IMG/VR virus record: IMGVR_UViG_2585427785_000006
Origin: a virus
Taxonomy: Duplodnaviria > Heunggongvirae > Uroviricota > Caudoviricetes
Length of the DNA: 7,081 nt
Reading direction: 5' to 3' (one strand)
Part shown: positions 1 through 6,561 of the stretch, one piece after another
Layout of the letters: each line of letters begins with the position of its first letter
Numbering within the stretch: the first letter of the stretch is position 1
Program-made: the position numbers and the translations under genes
The notes under the pieces: model-generated
What the model was told of the DNA's origin: nothing
The model's database searches: none
The model's input: the letters and a program-made list of their open reading frames with translations, nothing else

Positions 1-933
1 ATGGACAACGACAAAATTGATCAACACAGCGACGAAATTGAAGTTGAGAGCGAAGAAAAAGAGCGCGGCAAAAAAATAGAAATAGATGAAGACCGACTCC
101 CCTCCCGGGCGATGGCAATTCATGAGCATATCCGCCAGGATGGTGAAAAAGAGCTGGAACGCGACGCAATGGCGCTACTGTGGTCAGCCATTGCGGCGGG
201 TCTGTCGATGGGCGCTTCGTTACTGGCAAAAGGGATATTTCAAGTCGAACTGGAAGGTGTGCCGGGCAGCTTCTTGCTGGAGAATCTCGGTTATACCTTT
301 GGTTTTATTATCGTCATTATGGCCCGCCAGCAATTATTTACCGAAAATACCGTGACTGCGGTACTACCCGTCATGCAAAAACCGACAATGAGCAACGTCG
401 GCTTACTTATACGGTTATGGGGCGTCGTGCTGCTGGGTAATATTCTCGGGACAGGTATTGCGGCGTGGGCATTTGAATATATGCCTATCTTCAATGAAGA
501 AACTCGCGATGCATTTGTCAAAATCGGCATGGATGTGATGAAGAACACCCCCAGCGAGATGTTTGCCAACGCGATCATTTCCGGCTGGCTGATCGCCACT
601 ATGGTTTGGATGTTTCCTGCAGCGGGTGCGGCAAAGATTGTGGTGATTATATTGATGACCTGGCTTATTGCCCTGGGTGACACCACCCATATCGTGGTCG
701 GTTCTGTTGAAATCCTCTATCTGGTGTTTAACGGTACGCTGCACTGGAGCGATTTCATCTGGCCCTTCGCACTACCTACTTTAGCGGGGAACATCTGCGG
801 CGGCACCTTTATCTTCGCGTTAATGAGTCATGCACAGATTCGTAACGACATGAGCAATAAGCGTAAAGCAGAAGCACGCCAAAAAGCAGAACGTGCGGAA
901 AACATTAAGAAAAATTATAAAAACCCGGCATAA
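1..933 (+). CDS. yfdC: Inner membrane protein YfdC, formate/nitrite transporter (FNT) family
   Basis: Full 310-aa ORF from ATG at 1 to TAA at 931-933. The translation matches what I recall of E. coli K-12 YfdC and has a hydrophobic, multi-helix membrane profile. Its position directly upstream of tRNA-Arg argW and intS is the known K-12 arrangement. Confidence 0.9.
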   Translation: MDNDKIDQHSDEIEVESEEKERGKKIEIDEDRLPSRAMAIHEHIRQDGEKELERDAMALLWSAIAAGLSMGASLLAKGIFQVELEGVPGSFLLENLGYTFGFIIVIMARQQLFTENTVTAVLPVMQKPTMSNVGLLIRLWGVVLLGNILGTGIAAWAFEYMPIFNEETRDAFVKIGMDVMKNTPSEMFANAIISGWLIATMVWMFPAAGAAKIVVIILMTWLIALGDTTHIVVGSVEILYLVFNGTLHWSDFIWPFALPTLAGNICGGTFIFALMSHAQIRNDMSNKRKAEARQKAERAENIKKNYKNPA

Positions 934-1008: not shown

Positions 1009-1083
1009 GTCCTCTTAGTTAAATGGATATAACGAGCCCCTCCTAAGGGCTAATTGCAGGTTCGATTCCTGCAGGGGACACCA
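1009..1083 (+). tRNA. argW: tRNA-Arg, anticodon CCU (reads AGG)
   Basis: 75-nt sequence GTCCTCTTAGTT...GCAGGTTCGATTCCTGCAGGGGACACCA folds as a cloverleaf: 7-bp acceptor stem (GUCCUCU/AGGGGAC), T-arm GCAGG-TTCGATT-CCTGC, anticodon loop CUCCUAA with CCU, encoded 3' CCA. It matches E. coli argW as I recall it and sits in the expected yfdC/intS context. Confidence 0.92.
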
Positions 1084-1208: not shown

Positions 1209-1244
1209 GTGGATAAAATAATTTTACCCACCGGATTTTTACCC

Positions 1245-2402
1245 ATGCTCACCGTTAAGCAGATTGAAGCAGCAAAGCCGAAAGAAAAACCATACCGCCT
1301 ACTCGATGGTAATGGCCTGTACCTTTATGTCCCTGTGTCAGGGAAAAAGGTATGGCAGCTTCGCTACAAGATTGACGGTAAGGAGAAAATCCTGACCGTA
1401 GGAAAATATCCGCTAATGACTTTGCAGGAGGCAAGGGATAAGGCATGGACTGCGAGGAAAGACATCTCGGTTGGCATCGATCCGGTAAAGGCGAAAAAGG
1501 CTTCGTCTAACAACAATTCCTTTAGTGCGATTTACAAGGAATGGTACGAGCACAAGAAGCAAGTATGGTCAGTAGGGTATGCGACTGAACTTGCAAAAAT
1601 GTTTGATGACGACATTTTACCTATCATCGGCGGCCTTGAAATTCAGGATATTGAGCCGATGCAACTGCTGGAAGTAATCCGCAGATTTGAAGATCGCGGT
1701 GCAATGGAGAGAGCAAATAAAGCCCGCAGAAGATGCGGCGAGGTTTTCCGTTACGCTATTGTTACTGGTAGGGCTAAATATAACCCGGCACCTGACCTTG
1801 CTGACGCCATGAAGGGATACCGCAAGAAAAACTTCCCGTTTCTTCCTGCAGACCAGATCCCGGCATTTAACAAAGCACTGGCAACATTTTCAGGAAGCAT
1901 CGTATCGCTCATTGCGACCAAAGTTTTACGCTACACAGCCCTCAGAACAAAAGAGCTTCGTTCCATGCTATGGAAGAACGTCGATTTTGAAAACAGGATT
2001 ATCACCATCGACGCCAATGTGATGAAGGGACGCAAAATTCATGTGGTTCCTATGTCAGACCAGGTAGTTGAACTTCTCACTATGCTAAGCTCAATCACCA
2101 AACCAGTATCAGAGTTTGTTTTTGCCGGGCGCAACGATAAGAAGAAGCCAATTTGCGAGAACGCTGTACTGCTTGTGATCAAACAAATCGGCTATGAAGG
2201 TCTGGAAAGCGGTCACGGATTCAGGCATGAATTCAGCACGATTATGAACGAGCACGAATGGCCTGCCGACGCCATTGAAGTGCAACTTGCACATGCCAAC
2301 GGCGGATCTGTGCGCGGGATTTACAACCATGCACAGTATCTCGATAAGCGCAGAGAAATGATGCAGTGGTGGGCGGACTGGCTTGATGAAAAGGTAGAGT
2401 GA
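1245..2402 (+). CDS. intS: Tyrosine site-specific integrase, P4/CPS-53 (KpLE1) IntS type
   Basis: 385-aa ORF beginning MLTVKQIEAAKPKEKPYRLLDGNGLYLYV, matching E. coli K-12 IntS as I recall it. The C-terminal catalytic region carries tyrosine-recombinase hallmarks (LRTKELR, HGFRHEF, GSVRGIYNH with the nucleophile Tyr). The ORF track extends upstream to a GTG at 1209; I take ATG 1245 as the start by homology. Confidence 0.9.
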   Translation: MLTVKQIEAAKPKEKPYRLLDGNGLYLYVPVSGKKVWQLRYKIDGKEKILTVGKYPLMTLQEARDKAWTARKDISVGIDPVKAKKASSNNNSFSAIYKEWYEHKKQVWSVGYATELAKMFDDDILPIIGGLEIQDIEPMQLLEVIRRFEDRGAMERANKARRRCGEVFRYAIVTGRAKYNPAPDLADAMKGYRKKNFPFLPADQIPAFNKALATFSGSIVSLIATKVLRYTALRTKELRSMLWKNVDFENRIITIDANVMKGRKIHVVPMSDQVVELLTMLSSITKPVSEFVFAGRNDKKKPICENAVLLVIKQIGYEGLESGHGFRHEFSTIMNEHEWPADAIEVQLAHANGGSVRGIYNHAQYLDKRREMMQWWADWLDEKVE

Positions 2403-2948: not shown

Positions 2949-3060
2949 ATATTCTCCGCCGTGCAAAAATGCGAACAACATCACTTCACTAATCAACCTG
3001 ACATGGCATACTTAGCACGCTAACTATGATAACAAACTAATACCCTAAAACTCATGGTTC

Positions 3061-3087
3061 CGGGACTGGTCGTGGTCCCGTTTTTTT
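3061..3087 (+). terminator. Rho-independent terminator for the YkgJ-like gene
   Basis: 6-bp GC-rich stem CGGGAC/GTCCCG (3061-3066 / 3075-3080), 8-nt loop, then T7 (3081-3087). The reverse complement has no U-tract after the stem, so it is plus-strand specific. Its T-run ends at the stop codon of the convergent J-like ORF. Confidence 0.55.
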
Positions 3088-3089
3088 AT

Positions 3090-4400
3090 TCAGCCAGCAG
3101 GCCATCCAACAACGTAACTGCGGATCGCCTTCAGCTCTGTCAGCGCCTCAACCTCTGCTTTCATCTGCAACTGCCGTGTATTAATCTCCACCCCCTTCGC
3201 AAACATCGCCTGCTCTGTCGCATCCGACAGGGCTATGATGTCTGCCGCCGTCACCGGCACCACATTATTATCCCCGTCGGTCCAAGCAAAACCTTCCGGA
3301 AGACGGTTATTCTCTGCCATCAGGCGTGTCATGCTTATCCTGGACAACGTCTTCTTGCCGTAATCCCAGTTCCTTCCGTTGAATTCCATCATGTATTCCA
3401 TATTCTCCTGCACATCACGCCAGATATTAATCTCTTCCCTTTTCGCCGCTTTTGCCGCTTCCAGTACTGCTTCCGTGGCGACAAAGGCACTCACACTTCC
3501 GTACGTTCCTGCTGTCAGCCCAGACCACAATGCTTTTCCGTGTTCTGTATTATCCGTTTCCGTTGCAGTATACGGCAGCCATACCTGTTCCCCTTTTTCA
3601 TTCCCCGCGTCTTCAAACTGCCCCTCACAGTTTATCCCGCCATATTCGTTGCTGGCTGCATTTCGTACTGCAAGAATCTCTTTTCCCTTATGGTAGTTCA
3701 CCGTCATCTGCTGACCACCAAACTGCTCCGCATCCACCTGCATCCCCACAATGGCCGTGTTCGGGTAGCACTGTTTCACATCGATGATTTCGGTGTATGA
3801 CGACCACAGCGTTCTGTTCTGCAGCTGGTCCGTGGTGCTGTCCGCCGTCTCCCTGACCATCCGGATGTTAAAGGGGCGGGGAGGCAGATTATCCAGAATC
3901 ACCGAGGCCAGGAACTGTGAGGTGGTCTTGCCGTTAATGGTGACATCCTTTTCTGTCACCCAGTTACCGTTACGCTGTAACTGAATCAGCAGACGGACAG
4001 AGGACGGATTACGGTCACCCTTTGACGTGGTCTCCACCAGTGACTGCACCCCGAAGGTCACCCGCAGGCGGTCAATGTTCGCTGACGTAATGGTGCGTGT
4101 TACCGGTTTTGCCCTGGTCACTTCGACACCCAGTACAGTTTCAGAGCCGGAGGACTCAAAGCCTTCCGGTGGTGTCTGCTCCTGCTCCCCGGCACGCCAG
4201 ACCGCGGTCACACCGTGTATCACGGGATTACCGTCCGTGTCCGTCAGCGGGGTTTTGTTCACCAGAATACTCTGCAGGCTTTTCACCGGGCCTTCTATCG
4301 GTCCCTCACCAATCGCATCAATCACGCTCATCATCTGCGTGGATTTGAGATTGTCTTTCGCCTCACGAGGCGTGTGTGCCTTACCGCCACCTTTTCCCAT
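3090..4400 (-). CDS. J: Chimeric/truncated tail tip (host specificity) protein: J-like N-terminal ~243 aa fused to ~190 aa of unassigned sequence
   Basis: 436-aa ORF with a GGAAGG Shine-Dalgarno upstream of ATG 4400. The N-terminus MGKGGGKAHTPREAKDNLKSTQ...FESSGSETVLG...VKQCYPNTA...NYH tracks lambda gpJ residues 1 to ~243. Downstream of about nt 3670 the sequence no longer resembles lambda J, and the ORF stops at 436 aa where J-like proteins run to about 1100 aa. Confidence 0.75.
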   Translation of the reverse strand: MGKGGGKAHTPREAKDNLKSTQMMSVIDAIGEGPIEGPVKSLQSILVNKTPLTDTDGNPVIHGVTAVWRAGEQEQTPPEGFESSGSETVLGVEVTRAKPVTRTITSANIDRLRVTFGVQSLVETTSKGDRNPSSVRLLIQLQRNGNWVTEKDVTINGKTTSQFLASVILDNLPPRPFNIRMVRETADSTTDQLQNRTLWSSYTEIIDVKQCYPNTAIVGMQVDAEQFGGQQMTVNYHKGKEILAVRNAASNEYGGINCEGQFEDAGNEKGEQVWLPYTATETDNTEHGKALWSGLTAGTYGSVSAFVATEAVLEAAKAAKREEINIWRDVQENMEYMMEFNGRNWDYGKKTLSRISMTRLMAENNRLPEGFAWTDGDNNVVPVTAADIIALSDATEQAMFAKGVEINTRQLQMKAEVEALTELKAIRSYVVGWPAG

Positions 4401-4506
4401 ACAGCCTTCCCCTGAATAAATTAACCGCCACTTGCCATTCCGTACAGAAGTCGGATATCCTTCGCCCGAAAAGCATGAAACACATTTCTGCCATGCTAAA
4501 GAGAAA

Positions 4507-4539
4507 CCCCGGTATCAGCAGATACCGGGGTTTTCTTTC
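4507..4539. terminator. Perfect 10-bp hairpin (CCCCGGTATC-agca-GATACCGGGG) flanked by T-rich tracts on both strands; putative bidirectional intrinsic terminator
   Basis: Stem 4507-4516 / 4521-4530 with a 4-nt loop. Followed by TTTTCTTTC on the plus strand and by TTTCTCTTT on the minus strand. Lies in the non-lambda insert between I and J. Confidence 0.5.
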
Positions 4540-4657
4540 ATGCCCACCGATAATCCTGTTGGTTAAAACCGGTAATGGCATAAAAATTCTGAATATCTTC
4601 ACATTTTCACAAACTGACCGTGGCGCGTATAATTTTTCTGCGTTTATTTTTTTTTTG

Positions 4658-4666
4658 TGATATAAA
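4658..4666 (+). promoter_or_regulatory. Candidate extended -10 element (TGaTATAAA) preceded by a T10 tract (4647-4656)
   Basis: TG at 4658-4659 sits one nt upstream of TATAAA (4661-4666), with an AT-rich UP-like region upstream. A second TATAAT is at 4628-4633. No convincing -35 for either. A start here would give a short plus-strand transcript ending at the 4699-4737 terminator. Confidence 0.3.
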
Positions 4667-4698
4667 AATAATTTCTTTCACTTAATCTTTCTTAACTC

Positions 4699-4737
4699 TC
4701 CCGCAGTTCCTGTCCGCGATCACTGCGGGATTTTTTT
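4699..4737 (+). terminator. Strong plus-strand rho-independent terminator
   Basis: 9-bp stem TCCCGCAGT/ACTGCGGGA (4699-4707 / 4722-4730), 14-nt loop, then T7 (4731-4737). The reverse complement is followed by GAGTTAAG, which is not U-rich, so it is unidirectional. It ends 8 nt from the stop of the convergent I gene. Confidence 0.6.
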
Positions 4738-4744
4738 ATTCTTT

Positions 4745-5410
4745 TTACCCCTGCCGCCCGATAACCACGACCTTTCCGCCCCCGCCTTCATCACGGGTGC
4801 TGATGTCCTGGGATATACGGCGGGAGCCAACCAGCATTTCCCCGTAAGGCACCGGCATCGGGTTCCCCTGGGCAATCATGTTATCCAGCGAGGAAAAGTA
4901 CGTGTTCTGTCTGCCGTTATCCGTTGCGCGGTAATCCGGTGTTTTTGCCTTCGGGGCCAGCATCTGGGCCACACCGCCCAGTATCATGCTGGCACCCAGT
5001 GAAAACAGCATCGTGGTGGCAGAAAAACCACCGGCACTCAGGGCTGTACCCCATAACGCCATCGAGCCTCCGGCCGTGAAGAAAGAGCCCACGATGGCTG
5101 CCGCCCCCAACACAATCTGCAGTCCACCCTTTCCGGCCCCGGCCAGTCGCGGCACAATGTGGATGACCGTTCCCTCACCCAGCTGTTCGTGAAGGCGGGC
5201 GTACACCACCTCCGGTGCCGTGTCTTCACCGGCAATACGTATCTGGTACCAGCCTTCGTTCATCTGAAGGCGAAAGCCCGGCATCTGCATCGACAGGGCG
5301 CGAATGGCTTCCGCTGCCGTGTTCACATACAGGCTGAGGCGGCGGCCAAATCGTTGTAAATCCCCGTGGTTGCCCACGGTTGAGCCAGAGATAACAGCTT
5401 CCACCATCAT
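4745..5410 (-). CDS. I: Tail assembly protein I-like, N-terminally truncated (homology from about nt 5365 downward)
   Basis: From GDLQRFGRR onward the translation tracks lambda gpI, including the Gly/Ala-rich hydrophobic segment and C-terminal ...NTYFSSLDNM.AQGN...YGEM.VGSR..SQ.IST.DEGGGG.VVVIGR. The first ~15 codons of the ORF (MMVEAVISGSTVGNH) are out-of-frame FII sequence, so the natural I start is missing. Confidence 0.75.
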   Translation of the reverse strand: MMVEAVISGSTVGNHGDLQRFGRRLSLYVNTAAEAIRALSMQMPGFRLQMNEGWYQIRIAGEDTAPEVVYARLHEQLGEGTVIHIVPRLAGAGKGGLQIVLGAAAIVGSFFTAGGSMALWGTALSAGGFSATTMLFSLGASMILGGVAQMLAPKAKTPDYRATDNGRQNTYFSSLDNMIAQGNPMPVPYGEMLVGSRRISQDISTRDEGGGGKVVVIGRQG

Positions 5411-5696
5411 CCGGCGAAACCCGGTCTATCCAGAAGTTTTCCTCACCGATGGTCAGCGTGTCTCCACGCCGCAGTTGCCGCACATCATCAGTCCGGACAA
5501 ACAGGGACGGGCTGGAGCCTTCAACGCGCACGCCCTGTCCGGCATAGCTGATATTTTCAGGGTCATCAAAAACACCACGTATTACTGCGCCGGACTGCTC
5601 ACCGGATGTCATGGTGGCTGACGTTCCCATGTACCCGCGTATCGTTTCATCGGCGCGGGCAATGGCAGCATCGAACAGGTTATCGAAATCAGCCAC
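5226..5696 (-). CDS. FII: Head-tail joining protein FII-like, lacking its last ~9 codons, with read-through extension into the I fragment
   Basis: MADFDNLFDAAIARADETIRGYMGTSAT...TLTIGEENFW.DRVSPDDGGSC.LWL.RG matches lambda gpFII residues 1 to ~108 (nt 5373-5696). The remaining 48 codons (QPRGFTTIWPPP...) are the I region read in another frame. Confidence 0.8.
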   Translation of the reverse strand: MADFDNLFDAAIARADETIRGYMGTSATMTSGEQSGAVIRGVFDDPENISYAGQGVRVEGSSPSLFVRTDDVRQLRRGDTLTIGEENFWIDRVSPDDGGSCYLWLNRGQPRGFTTIWPPPQPVCEHGSGSHSRPVDADAGLSPSDERRLVPDTYCR

Positions 5697-5707
5697 AGCG
5701 CCTCCCG

Positions 5708-6103
5708 TTATTGCATTCTGGCCAGGCCGCGCTCTGTCATTTCAGCTGCCACACCGGCAGAGACACGGAACGCCGTTCCCGGCAGCACAAATGCCACAGT
5801 GTCATCCCGCGTGGCGTGAAGTGCATCAGTATGCAGCGTCACCAGTGCCACGACCGTGACCAGAGCAGCCGTATCAATCACGGTATCCGGCTGCGCTGAT
5901 ACCACCTCATTTTCATGTCCGGTCAGCGCATTTTCCGGGCTGACAGATGTGTCCTGACCGGCAGCGTCATCCGTGTCATCAAGCTCCTCTTCCAGCTCTG
6001 CCACACGGAGCACCAGTTCTTCTTTCGTCCCCGTCAGGCTGACATCACGGTTCAGTTGCTCACCCAGCACCTGAAGACGGGCAATCAGTTCATCTTTCGT
6101 CAT
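5708..6103 (-). CDS. FI: Head assembly/DNA-packaging protein FI-like (intact, 132 aa)
   Basis: ATG at 6103 is preceded by a GGAGG Shine-Dalgarno. MTKDELIARL...LTGTKEEL.LRVAEL.EELDDTD...LTGHENEV.SAQPDTVI...HTDALHATRD..VAFVLPGTAFRVSAGVAAEMTERGLARMQ is close to lambda gpFI over its whole length. The ORF-track extension to 6142 is upstream read-through. Confidence 0.85.
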   Translation of the reverse strand: MTKDELIARLQVLGEQLNRDVSLTGTKEELVLRVAELEEELDDTDDAAGQDTSVSPENALTGHENEVVSAQPDTVIDTAALVTVVALVTLHTDALHATRDDTVAFVLPGTAFRVSAGVAAEMTERGLARMQ

Positions 6104-6114
6104 GGACTCCTCCA

Positions 6115-6142
6115 CAGAGAGAAAATGGCCCCGAAGGGCCAT
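6115..6142 (-). terminator. Hairpin with UUCG loop plus U-tract between the E fragment and FI (putative attenuator/terminator)
   Basis: On the minus strand: AUGGCCC-UUCG-GGGCCAU (7-bp stem, plus-strand 6125-6142) followed by UUUUCUCUCU, starting 2 nt after the TAA of the upstream ORF and just before the FI Shine-Dalgarno. Confidence 0.45.
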
Positions 6143-6144
6143 GA

Positions 6145-6561
6145 TTACGCCAGTTGTACGGACACGAACGCATCAGGATCAGCCAGCAGCATCAGCGGTG
6201 CTGACTGAATCATGGTGAACTCACGCGCCGGATCGCCGGTGGTCACCCAGTTTTTCGGGTAGCGGGCAGAGGCGTTAATACCTTCGCGCTGTGCGTCCGC
6301 ATCCTGAATGCAGCCATAACCAACACGGGCAGACTTCACCACATTCACCTCACGGATGTAGTCGCTGCCCATCGCATTCATGATGGCCCGCTGAAAGGGC
6401 AGTGTTTCCCAGCGCCCTTCCTGGTATGCGGATTCTTTCGGGAGATAGTAATTGGCATCCGCCCATTCAACGGCGGTCTGTGGCTCCGGCCTGAACAGTG
6501 AGCGAAGCCCGGCGCGGACAAAATGCCGCAGCCTGTTAACCTGACTGTTCGATATATTCAC
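6145..6561 (-). CDS. In-frame fusion ORF: terminase large subunit A residues 1-82 joined to the C-terminal ~56 residues of major capsid protein E
   Basis: GTG start at 6561 overlaps the Nu1 3' end by 26 nt, as in lambda. MNISNSQVNRLRHFVRAGLRSLFRPEPQTAVEWADANYYLPKESAYQEGRWETLPFQRAIMNAMGSDYIREVNVVKSARVGY is the gpA N-terminus. It is followed in frame by GCIQDADAQREGINASARYPKNWVTTGDPAREFTMIQSAPLMLLADPD.FVSVQLA, the gpE C-terminus. Junction at nt 6313-6318. Confidence 0.8.
   Translation of the reverse strand: MNISNSQVNRLRHFVRAGLRSLFRPEPQTAVEWADANYYLPKESAYQEGRWETLPFQRAIMNAMGSDYIREVNVVKSARVGYGCIQDADAQREGINASARYPKNWVTTGDPAREFTMIQSAPLMLLADPDAFVSVQLA

Follow-up and report, generated by a model that had tools for sequence, protein, structure and literature searches.

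The DNA analysed here, a stretch of 7,081 nt recorded in IMG/VR as IMGVR_UViG_2585427785_000006 (Caudoviricetes) and called the window below, contains the remains of a lambdoid prophage in which the tail genes I and J are separated by a gap of 344 bp (positions 4401-4744). The right half of this gap holds a small RNA (sRNA) moron. It is a divergent member of the published PasB family and thus of a kind already known; that the whole unit at 4580-4744 is a pasB allele, lying between I and J and pointing against the late operon, we hold with a probability of about 0.85. The unit has the marks of a moron: a promoter and a terminator of its own, a deviating GC content (28-34% in 4550-4749 against 55-65% in the flanks) and an insertion point between genes that lie close together in relatives. 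An initial annotation made from the sequence alone had proposed a moron or sRNA cassette for the gap. The proposal holds for the right half (~4580-4744), which shares promoter, terminator, orientation and position with pasB; the left-hand hairpin that had been counted in lies outside the sRNA unit.

Homology of the unit to pasB and its predicted anatomy

PasB, for pathogenicity-associated sRNA B, is an 83-nt RNA of prophage PP6 of enteropathogenic Escherichia coli O127:H6 E2348/69 (NC_011601.1, 1466343-1466261, minus strand; Pearl Mizrahi et al. 2021, PMC8550237, table S6). In the RefSeq annotation, these coordinates fall between a 'tail assembly protein' gene (I) and gpJ, on the opposite strand and convergent with I. 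The reverse complement of the Northern probe used for PasB, AATCCCGCAGTGATCGCGGAGCT (PMC8550237, table S6), matches window positions 4711-4730, with 20 contiguous of 23 bases. Alignment of the window with the E2348/69 locus revealed identical -35 and -10 hexamers, an identical CTGCGTT after the -10, and an identical 3' half and U tail of the terminator around a diverged body. Promoter and terminator scans call the same two elements around PasB in E2348/69. The two units also have in common the I-J slot, the orientation, the 16-nt spacing of -35 and -10, the GCGUU start, the 7-bp stem followed by U7, an AU-rich unstructured body and the core AAUCUU. They differ in the terminator loop, which is 5 nt longer in the window, and in the left half of the gap, where the window has a different and longer sequence that we denote form A (gap of 344 bp as opposed to 240 bp in E2348/69).

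A covariance model, R1, built from 20 alleles with the window left out, matched 4640-4737 over its full length (79.8 bits, E = 2.4e-14) and gave no match in the lambda I-J region. Covariance and Rfam comparisons had both been suggested in the initial annotation: R1 matches the RNA, and no Rfam family matches the gap, where all hits of a scan of the whole window at E <= 1 were noise. A closer relative is the allele of the ATCC 25922 type (800 of 5426 complete E. coli genomes), to which the window RNA is 92% identical; the left half, the promoter, the terminator and the I and J flanks are the same, and the nine changes that set the two apart, all of which extend runs (4636-4692), are private to the window.

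For the E2348/69 allele, the RNA has been detected directly. PasB gives a Northern band of the predicted size (PMC8550237), and in lysogens pasB reached baseMean values of 482 and 1082 in two conditions, compared with 5-15 for I and J (PMC8550237). The abundance of pasB while I and J are near silent implies that the unit is transcribed independently of the late operon in E2348/69. In an hfq mutant, the PasB level changed by log2 -6.8 and -2.4 (PMC8550237), and 37 interactions of PasB were recorded by RIL-seq (ligation and sequencing of interacting RNAs; PMC8550237, tables S2, S5, S6). The plus-strand RNA of 65-100 nt against the tail operon that had been predicted for the window therefore has a counterpart in the PasB made at the homologous locus; it overlaps the I-J spacer and no coding sequence. 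The initial annotation had also considered that the segment could be ordinary I-J DNA with no transcript of its own. The gap is indeed ordinary I-J DNA of a widespread prophage lineage, yet one with an independent transcript, as seen for the E2348/69 allele.

The features of the unit are listed in the table together with those of its surroundings. The hairpin, the T10 run, the hexamers and the terminator named in the initial annotation are all present in the sequence. Of the two -10-like hexamers among them, TATAAT (4628-4633) is the conserved -10; the second, TGATATAAA, is not conserved and reads CGAGTAACAAA in E2348/69. The promoter scan returned three promoter-like sites, compared with 1.1 expected in shuffled sequences. 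The terminator scan reports a terminator at 4713-4729 on the plus strand only, and no T run follows the stem on the minus strand, in agreement with the strong plus-strand-only terminator that had been described. The RNA 4640-4737 folds better than shuffled sequences (z = -3.39). The predicted consensus structure is an unpaired AU-rich body followed by the terminator, with the 5' two-thirds of the RNA unstructured. At the predicted positions +1 to +6, all alleles except that of the window read GCGUUA (for example L002:4354-4359, the E2348/69 locus), where the window has GCGUUU (4640-4645).

Upstream of the promoter, the motif TCTGA-N6-TCACA occurs once in the window, as compared with 0.01 matches expected. 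It is found in all 56 of 56 distinct promoter variants, with invariant half-sites and a variable 6-nt spacer, and the pattern by which the loci were retrieved left this stretch unconstrained. Class II promoters that depend on CRP carry TGTGA-N6-TCACA centred at about -41.5; the motif fits nine of the ten core bases, and its centre is 3 bp off the canonical position. Such a shared dimer-type motif suggests, as far as sequence can tell, a common dimeric regulator. PasB levels are higher in overnight static cultures in lysogeny broth (LB) than in exponential cultures in DMEM (PMC8550237), which fits activation by CRP if DMEM contains glucose, as we assume, and is not specific for CRP.

Collectively, these features point to the following course of events. 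Host sigma-70 RNA polymerase would start at about G4640 from TTCACA-16-TATAAT and stop at the terminator CCCGCAG/CUGCGGG-U7, at 4737. The product would be an RNA of ~98 nt, possibly trimmed to ~82 nt at the U run. By homology, the RNA would be made in the lysogen, independently of late transcription; Hfq would bind and stabilise it through the terminator hairpin and the U tail, and the single-stranded body would base-pair in trans with mRNAs of host and prophage. Expression of the window allele and its mRNA partners are thus predicted from its likeness to PasB. The likely seed of PasB has been assigned to the stretch that immediately precedes the terminator (Zhu, Shabalina and Storz 2026, bioRxiv 10.64898/2026.05.13.724894). 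In the window, the AAUCUU of this region (4684-4689) is kept and conserved neighbours are changed at 4674, 4678, 4688 and 4692, the seed itself being a prediction of the literature.

Several points weigh against this assignment. The RNA body shares only 74% identity, over the predicted 98 nt, with the E2348/69 PasB, the allele for which alone transcription, size, Hfq dependence and RNA partners are known, and PasB itself is without a validated target or known phenotype in the literature. Relative to the start predicted from the -10, the published 5' end of PasB is displaced by 15-16 nt downstream, to the end of a U run; the matching window position is 4656, which would give 82 nt. This offset means that the start or the promoter assignment is not fully settled; the mature PasB-type RNA may arise by processing, or read coverage, from which the annotated end was taken, may have placed that end imprecisely. 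Three of the nine private changes fall in the most conserved block, so that target specificity may have been changed or lost. Rfam holds no PasB model, the type sequence itself matching no family, and the missing match in the gap is therefore uninformative either way. Finally, as the terminator stem is invariant and no pairing is predicted for the body, covariation gives the structure no support. A full-text literature search with the terminator sequence gave no match.

Other identities for the unit were considered and rejected. None of the open reading frames (ORFs) of the gap matched a PHROGs family, and neither strand holds a supported ORF, as the initial annotation had concluded. For a 66-residue ORF annotated in phage ASU11, tblastn against 50,697 phage records returned matches of 100% identity only; on these identical copies and the negative PHROGs result, a protein-coding reading of the gap was rejected. 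A type I toxin-antitoxin pair fails on the same ORF (66/73 residues), which crosses the terminator hairpin and has neither a Shine-Dalgarno sequence nor diverged homologues; the sole ORF antisense to the RNA (4607-4681, minus strand) encodes 24 residues and is basic, not a hydrophobic toxin. AgvB and AsxR of enterohaemorrhagic E. coli (Tree et al. 2014, PMC4104026; RF02702, RF02703) are likewise short, Hfq-bound prophage RNAs convergent with phage genes, and form allele families with a conserved 3' end and a variable 5' end. They differ in their slot, which is downstream of PR' by lysis and moron genes, in their length of 51-60 nt and in a conserved 3' region of ~42 nt. Identity with them was dismissed, as there was no match to RF02702 or RF02703 at E <= 1, no sequence similarity and a different slot. 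Morons such as lambda lom and bor (Juhala et al. 2000, as cited in PMC4104026) share with the unit the autonomous promoter-gene-terminator layout, the lower GC content and expression from a repressed prophage; relative to morons as they are described there, the cargo of the window-type unit is a non-coding RNA and the unit points against the host operon.

Table. Features of the I-J gap and of its surroundings in the window
Feature	Position	Strand	Details
yfdC	1-933	+	310 residues
tRNA-Arg(CCT), argW	1009-1083		only genuine Rfam match in the whole window (scan at E <= 1)
Integrase gene int	1209-2402	+	397 residues
Truncated tail-tip gene J'	3090-4400	-	left border of the gap; 436 residues; Pfam FNIII-A_GpJ (1e-40), DUF4376 (5e-16)
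J leader	4401-4497	-	ribosome-binding site GGGGAAGG, small stem-loops; part of the form A left half
Perfect 10-bp GC-rich hairpin	4498-4539		arms CCCCGGTATC (4507-4516) and GATACCGGGG (4521-4530), loop AGCA; shape of a bidirectional terminator
Imperfect stem-loop	4540-4581	-	AUGCC..ACCGGU / AUCGGU..GGCAU; directly precedes the hairpin in the late mRNA; from the minimum-free-energy fold of the tail strand
CRP-like motif TCTGA-N6-TCACA	4588-4603	+	centre at -44.5 from the predicted start
Sigma-70 promoter	4606-4633	+	-35 TTCACA (4606-4611), 16-nt spacer, -10 TATAAT (4628-4633); 11/12 matches
PasB-family small RNA	4640-4737	+	predicted primary transcript of 98 nt; full-length R1 match
T10 run in 5' part of RNA	4647-4656	+	ancestral T7GTC altered in this copy by G>T at 4654 and C>T at 4656 (comparison with L003 and L001; allele table)
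TGATATAAA	4658-4666	+	second -10-like hexamer of the initial annotation
Candidate seed	4667-4691	+	most conserved single-stranded part of the body; consensus AAUAAYUCCUUA..UUAAUCUUC, window AAUAAUUUCUUUCACUUAAUCUUUC
Rho-independent terminator, likely Hfq-binding module	4700-4737	+	7-bp stem CCCGCAG (4700-4706) / CTGCGGG (4723-4729), 16-nt loop, A, T7 (4731-4737)
Tail assembly gene I	4745-5410	-	right border of the gap; Pfam Lambda_tail_I (1.9e-14)

Distribution and allele classes of the family

By blastn, the 185-nt unit has matches in 1846 of the 5426 complete E. coli genomes. Loci were sampled at 12 points down the blastn ranking, and 120 further ones were retrieved from IMG/VR with a promoter-to-terminator pattern; 45 distinct RNA alleles were present among them. 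In the loci obtained by blastn, for which no pattern was imposed, no variation is seen in the -10 core ATAAT, in CTGCGTT or in the 7-bp stem (CCCGCAG/CTGCGGG) and the T run behind it; the loop and most of the body vary. Column conservation singles out two blocks of the body, AAUAAYUCCUUA, which resembles an anti-Shine-Dalgarno sequence, and UUAAUCUUC. The position in other lambdoid prophages, raised as a check in the initial annotation, was confirmed in the fetched loci: 123 of 143 copies have the N-terminus of J on the left and the C-terminus of I on the right, the other 20 being cut by contig ends or internal to tandem arrays.

Among species-representative genomes, the unit was found in E. 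albertii and on two short contigs, with no sign of it outside Escherichia once these contigs are set aside as likely contaminants. The published range of PasB, Escherichia and Shigella, agrees with this survey. The contigs are assigned to Parendozoicomonas haliclonae (L018, 460 bp) and Streptomyces flavalbus (L020, 3.4 kb); both carry a pasB-type unit, most likely through contamination with E. coli or phage DNA.

The published survey used the 83-nt E2348/69 sequence as query in blastn with a word size of 28 and more than 75% coverage (Zhu et al. 2026, bioRxiv 10.64898/2026.05.13.724894). It describes PasB variants that differ by few nucleotides, PasB-2 at position 27 (Zhu et al. 2026, bioRxiv 10.64898/2026.05.13.724894); PasB-2 corresponds to the O157-type allele of the present set. 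The longest exact word shared by the 83-nt PasB with the window or with the ATCC 25922-type allele is 25 nt, and the ATCC 25922-type class therefore cannot seed a search with word size 28. In megablast runs with that word size, the PasB query retrieved 956 of the 5426 genomes and the ATCC 25922-type query 800. If the two sets are largely distinct, as their sum suggests, about half of the family lies outside the published survey.

Left halves of the gap and RNA bodies reassort. The O157 and ATCC 25922 loci share the form A left half and differ in their bodies, while E2348/69 combines a short left half, form B, with an O157-like body. 

Five IMG/VR loci (L058, at 320-1100; L110; L113; L115; L139) contain four tandem sRNA-like modules of ~220 nt each, ~900 nt in all, between J and I and in pasB orientation. 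An ATAAT-type -10 is present in three of the four modules, and TCTGA-N6-TCACA and a GC hairpin with T run in all four. Module 2 stands apart in its body, AACUACUCCUUAAGG, and in its terminator, CTCCCGT/ACGGGAG; in L009 (338-761), this module is present as the second copy. The inner part of the array is present, unannotated, in 67-85 of the 5426 genomes. According to the published survey, Pas genes are typically single per prophage.

Taken alone, the window copy changes little, as it adds one more copy of a published prophage sRNA. The PasB family as a whole appears to reach about twice as many E. coli genomes as are retrieved by BLAST with the type sequence (~1846 versus 956 of 5426). What merits further study is its allele diversity, together with the four-gene arrays and the upstream motif conserved in the family. 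The allele or alleles in this slot could be one source of differences in Hfq-dependent regulation among E. coli strains, pathogenic and commensal alike.

Private changes of the window copy and alternative explanations

Over 4357-5109, the window differs from its nearest relative, E. coli S1-CAM-01-A (L003), at nine positions, all within the 57 nt of 4636-4692, between the -10 and the terminator stem; the 279 nt upstream and the 417 nt downstream of this cluster are identical. C is replaced by T at 4636, 4656 and 4674, A by T at 4645 and 4678, and G by T at 4654 and 4692; there is one extra T, at 4688, and one G>A change, at 4666. Each extends an existing homopolymer run (eight T runs and one A run), and comparison with the other alleles identifies the window states as derived. 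The allele is absent from the 5426 complete E. coli genomes (best match 95.1%). Exact-pattern scans of IMG/VR and of metagenome contigs found no copy, and 13 metagenome matches to a 21-mer proved to be unrelated sequences. Misalignment mutagenesis, selection on the seed, decay and homopolymer sequencing error are all possible causes. As promoter, upstream motif and terminator are untouched, transcription is likely, and the target range is uncertain.

The window copy might accordingly be a decaying, dead allele that is still transcribed and, with a scrambled seed, regulates nothing; we regard this as a tentative possibility that deserves to be taken seriously. The prophage is a wreck, with an A'/E' fusion, a deletion between FII and I and a truncated J', and the tight packing of the private changes between flanks identical to L003, the hits at 4674, 4678 and 4688 in a block conserved across 45 alleles and the failure to find the exact allele in the 5426 genomes, in IMG/VR or in metagenomes all speak for it. 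Random decay, however, would hardly leave both flanks without a single change. The -35, the -10, the upstream motif, the 5' GCGUU and the entire terminator are intact, the invariant AAUCUU is retained, and the C>U changes preserve pairing to G through G-U wobble. The persistence of an intact unit inside a prophage stripped of most functions is what domestication by the host would lead one to expect, but it may also be due to chance retention.

Somewhat more doubtful is the explanation that the nine differences, the T10 run included, are sequencing or assembly errors of a draft genome whose true allele is of the ATCC 25922 type. All nine changes extend homopolymer runs, a pattern typical of homopolymer miscalls, and the allele is confined to one contig. 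Eight of the nine are nevertheless substitutions that leave no net change in length, and generally poor homopolymer calling should have introduced frameshifts into some of the ORFs of yfdC, int, FI and Nu1, which are uninterrupted. The same contig is, moreover, recorded for three samples.

A different question is whether RNAs of this family act mainly in cis, as antisense to the I-J spacer of the late mRNA, through cleavage by RNase III or interference between convergent transcripts. Lambda OOP provides the precedent: it is a short RNA with its own promoter and an intrinsic terminator, is directed against a phage operon and acts in cis, by way of RNase III, on cII, whose coding sequence it overlaps at the 3' end. 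By analogy with OOP on cII, a cis-acting RNA would adjust the ratio of I to J or dampen leaky expression of the tail genes. The RNA is perfectly complementary to ~100 nt of the spacer, is convergent with I and stops 7 nt short of the stop codon of I; 123 of the 143 copies are tied to this single position, for which a gene acting in trans would have no need. Unlike OOP, the window RNA overlaps no coding sequence, nor does it overlap a ribosome-binding site, the start of J being 240 nt away; the homologue PasB pairs with many targets in trans on Hfq. In lysogens, PasB is abundant while I and J are hardly expressed, its chimeras with core-genome mRNAs depend on Hfq, and the bodies differ greatly between alleles beside near-identical I genes. 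We therefore consider a mainly cis-acting RNA unlikely, and a cis-antisense role possible as a second function in intact prophages. In the window genome such a role cannot operate, since the late operon is destroyed.

Beyond the assignment to the PasB family, one may speculate that the I-J spacer of E. coli lambdoid prophages is an exchangeable sRNA slot. Its fixed frame would comprise TCTGA-N6-TCACA, the promoter, the 5' GCGUUA and the terminator; into it would fit interchangeable seed-bearing bodies, from one copy to arrays of up to four, re-tuned by local, strand-biased mutation of the transcribed unpaired part, with the window copy as a snapshot. We think it quite improbable that this general scheme is correct in full.

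That there is no independent gene at all, and that hairpins, T runs and hexamers are signals for processing, stability or termination of the polycistronic tail mRNA, is hardly credible: lambda and other lambdoid I-J spacers do hold hairpins, and the left half of the gap is best read in this way, but the terminator at 4700-4737 functions on one strand alone, the one opposite to the tail operon, the 11/12 promoter faces the same way and is conserved across alleles with differing bodies, and the homologous RNA of the E2348/69 allele was found on that strand in a lysogen in which the late genes were not being transcribed.

The left half of the gap and the surrounding prophage

The segment 4401-4581 lies outside the sRNA unit and is a structured leader of J in the late mRNA. 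On the tail strand, it forms several stem-loops ahead of the J ribosome-binding site. The most prominent of them is the perfect GC-rich hairpin, which is flanked by the A-rich AAAGAGAAA upstream and by the T-rich TTTTCTTTC downstream, up to 4539. Its predicted fold has an energy of -24.5 kcal/mol (z = -3.65) on the minus strand and of -32.2 kcal/mol (z = -6.96) in the plus-strand context of 4466-4546. The simple terminator scan omits the hairpin at 4507-4530, in our reading because the maximal stem uses up the flanking T and A runs. The stem-loop at 4540-4581 also appears in a weak Rfam alignment, which is not a real family match.

The left half is widely conserved: of the 1451 matching E. coli records (1446 of the 5426 genomes), 1441 reach an identity of 99% or more over 4415-4575, those of O157:H7 and ATCC 25922 included. 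This non-coding form A segment is thus near invariant, while the adjacent J differs by ~5% between the window and its nearest relative. A second plus-strand sRNA, running from TTGCCA-18-TATCCT (4432-4461) to the hairpin at 4507-4539, was considered and left unsupported, its promoter scoring 9/12 only; the near invariance of 4432-4539 across genomes makes conservation uninformative on this point.

In lambda, I and J do not abut, as had been supposed in the initial annotation; they are separated by a spacer of 60 nt with a hairpin of its own. GC-rich hairpins of unrelated sequence lie just upstream of J in lambda (L017:746-805), in E2348/69 (L002:4431-4454) and in the window (4507-4530). The scan flags the form B hairpin of E2348/69 as a terminator in the tail direction, and relatives show a compensatory change from C-G to U-A in it; the lambda hairpin, AAACCGCC/GGCGGTTT, is not flagged. 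From these comparisons, the J-proximal hairpin seems to be an element of lambdoid tail operons that is conserved in position without being homologous. Our best guess is that it serves polymerases without the Q modification as a terminator or as a 3' stabiliser. One IMG/VR locus with a form A spacer (L086) has a 47-nt deletion that removes the strong hairpin, which is therefore dispensable in at least one sequenced prophage.

The window represents the argW end of an Escherichia chromosome, and its arrangement as a whole was found in no complete E. coli genome. After int, the minus strand carries the eroded lambdoid prophage, consisting of J', I, a remnant of FII, FI (144 residues), an A'/E' ORF and Nu1 (181 residues); the erosion shows at 5226-6561 and at 3090-3800. 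In the A'/E' ORF (6145-6561), an N-terminal fragment of terminase A is joined to the C-terminus of the major capsid protein E. A plus-strand ORF of 248 residues antisense to J' (3054-3800) has no family match and is probably spurious.

The stop codon of gene I lies 7 nt beyond the sRNA terminator. The 5' end of the gene has been replaced at a deletion junction at ~5369-5410, and similarity to L003 breaks down from 5369. The overlap of the FII ORF with this 5'-replaced I implies the deletion of everything between FII and I, an interval that in the lambda gene order extends from Z through K.

J' consists of an N-terminal part of J, cut after ~240 residues, fused to a DUF4376 C-terminus. From 4400 down to 3700, the stretch over which the two were aligned, its DNA is ~95% identical to the 5' part of the full-length gpJ gene of E. 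coli S1-CAM-01-A. A protein identical to J' is encoded on contig JOQI01000019.1 of assembly GCA_000714015.1.

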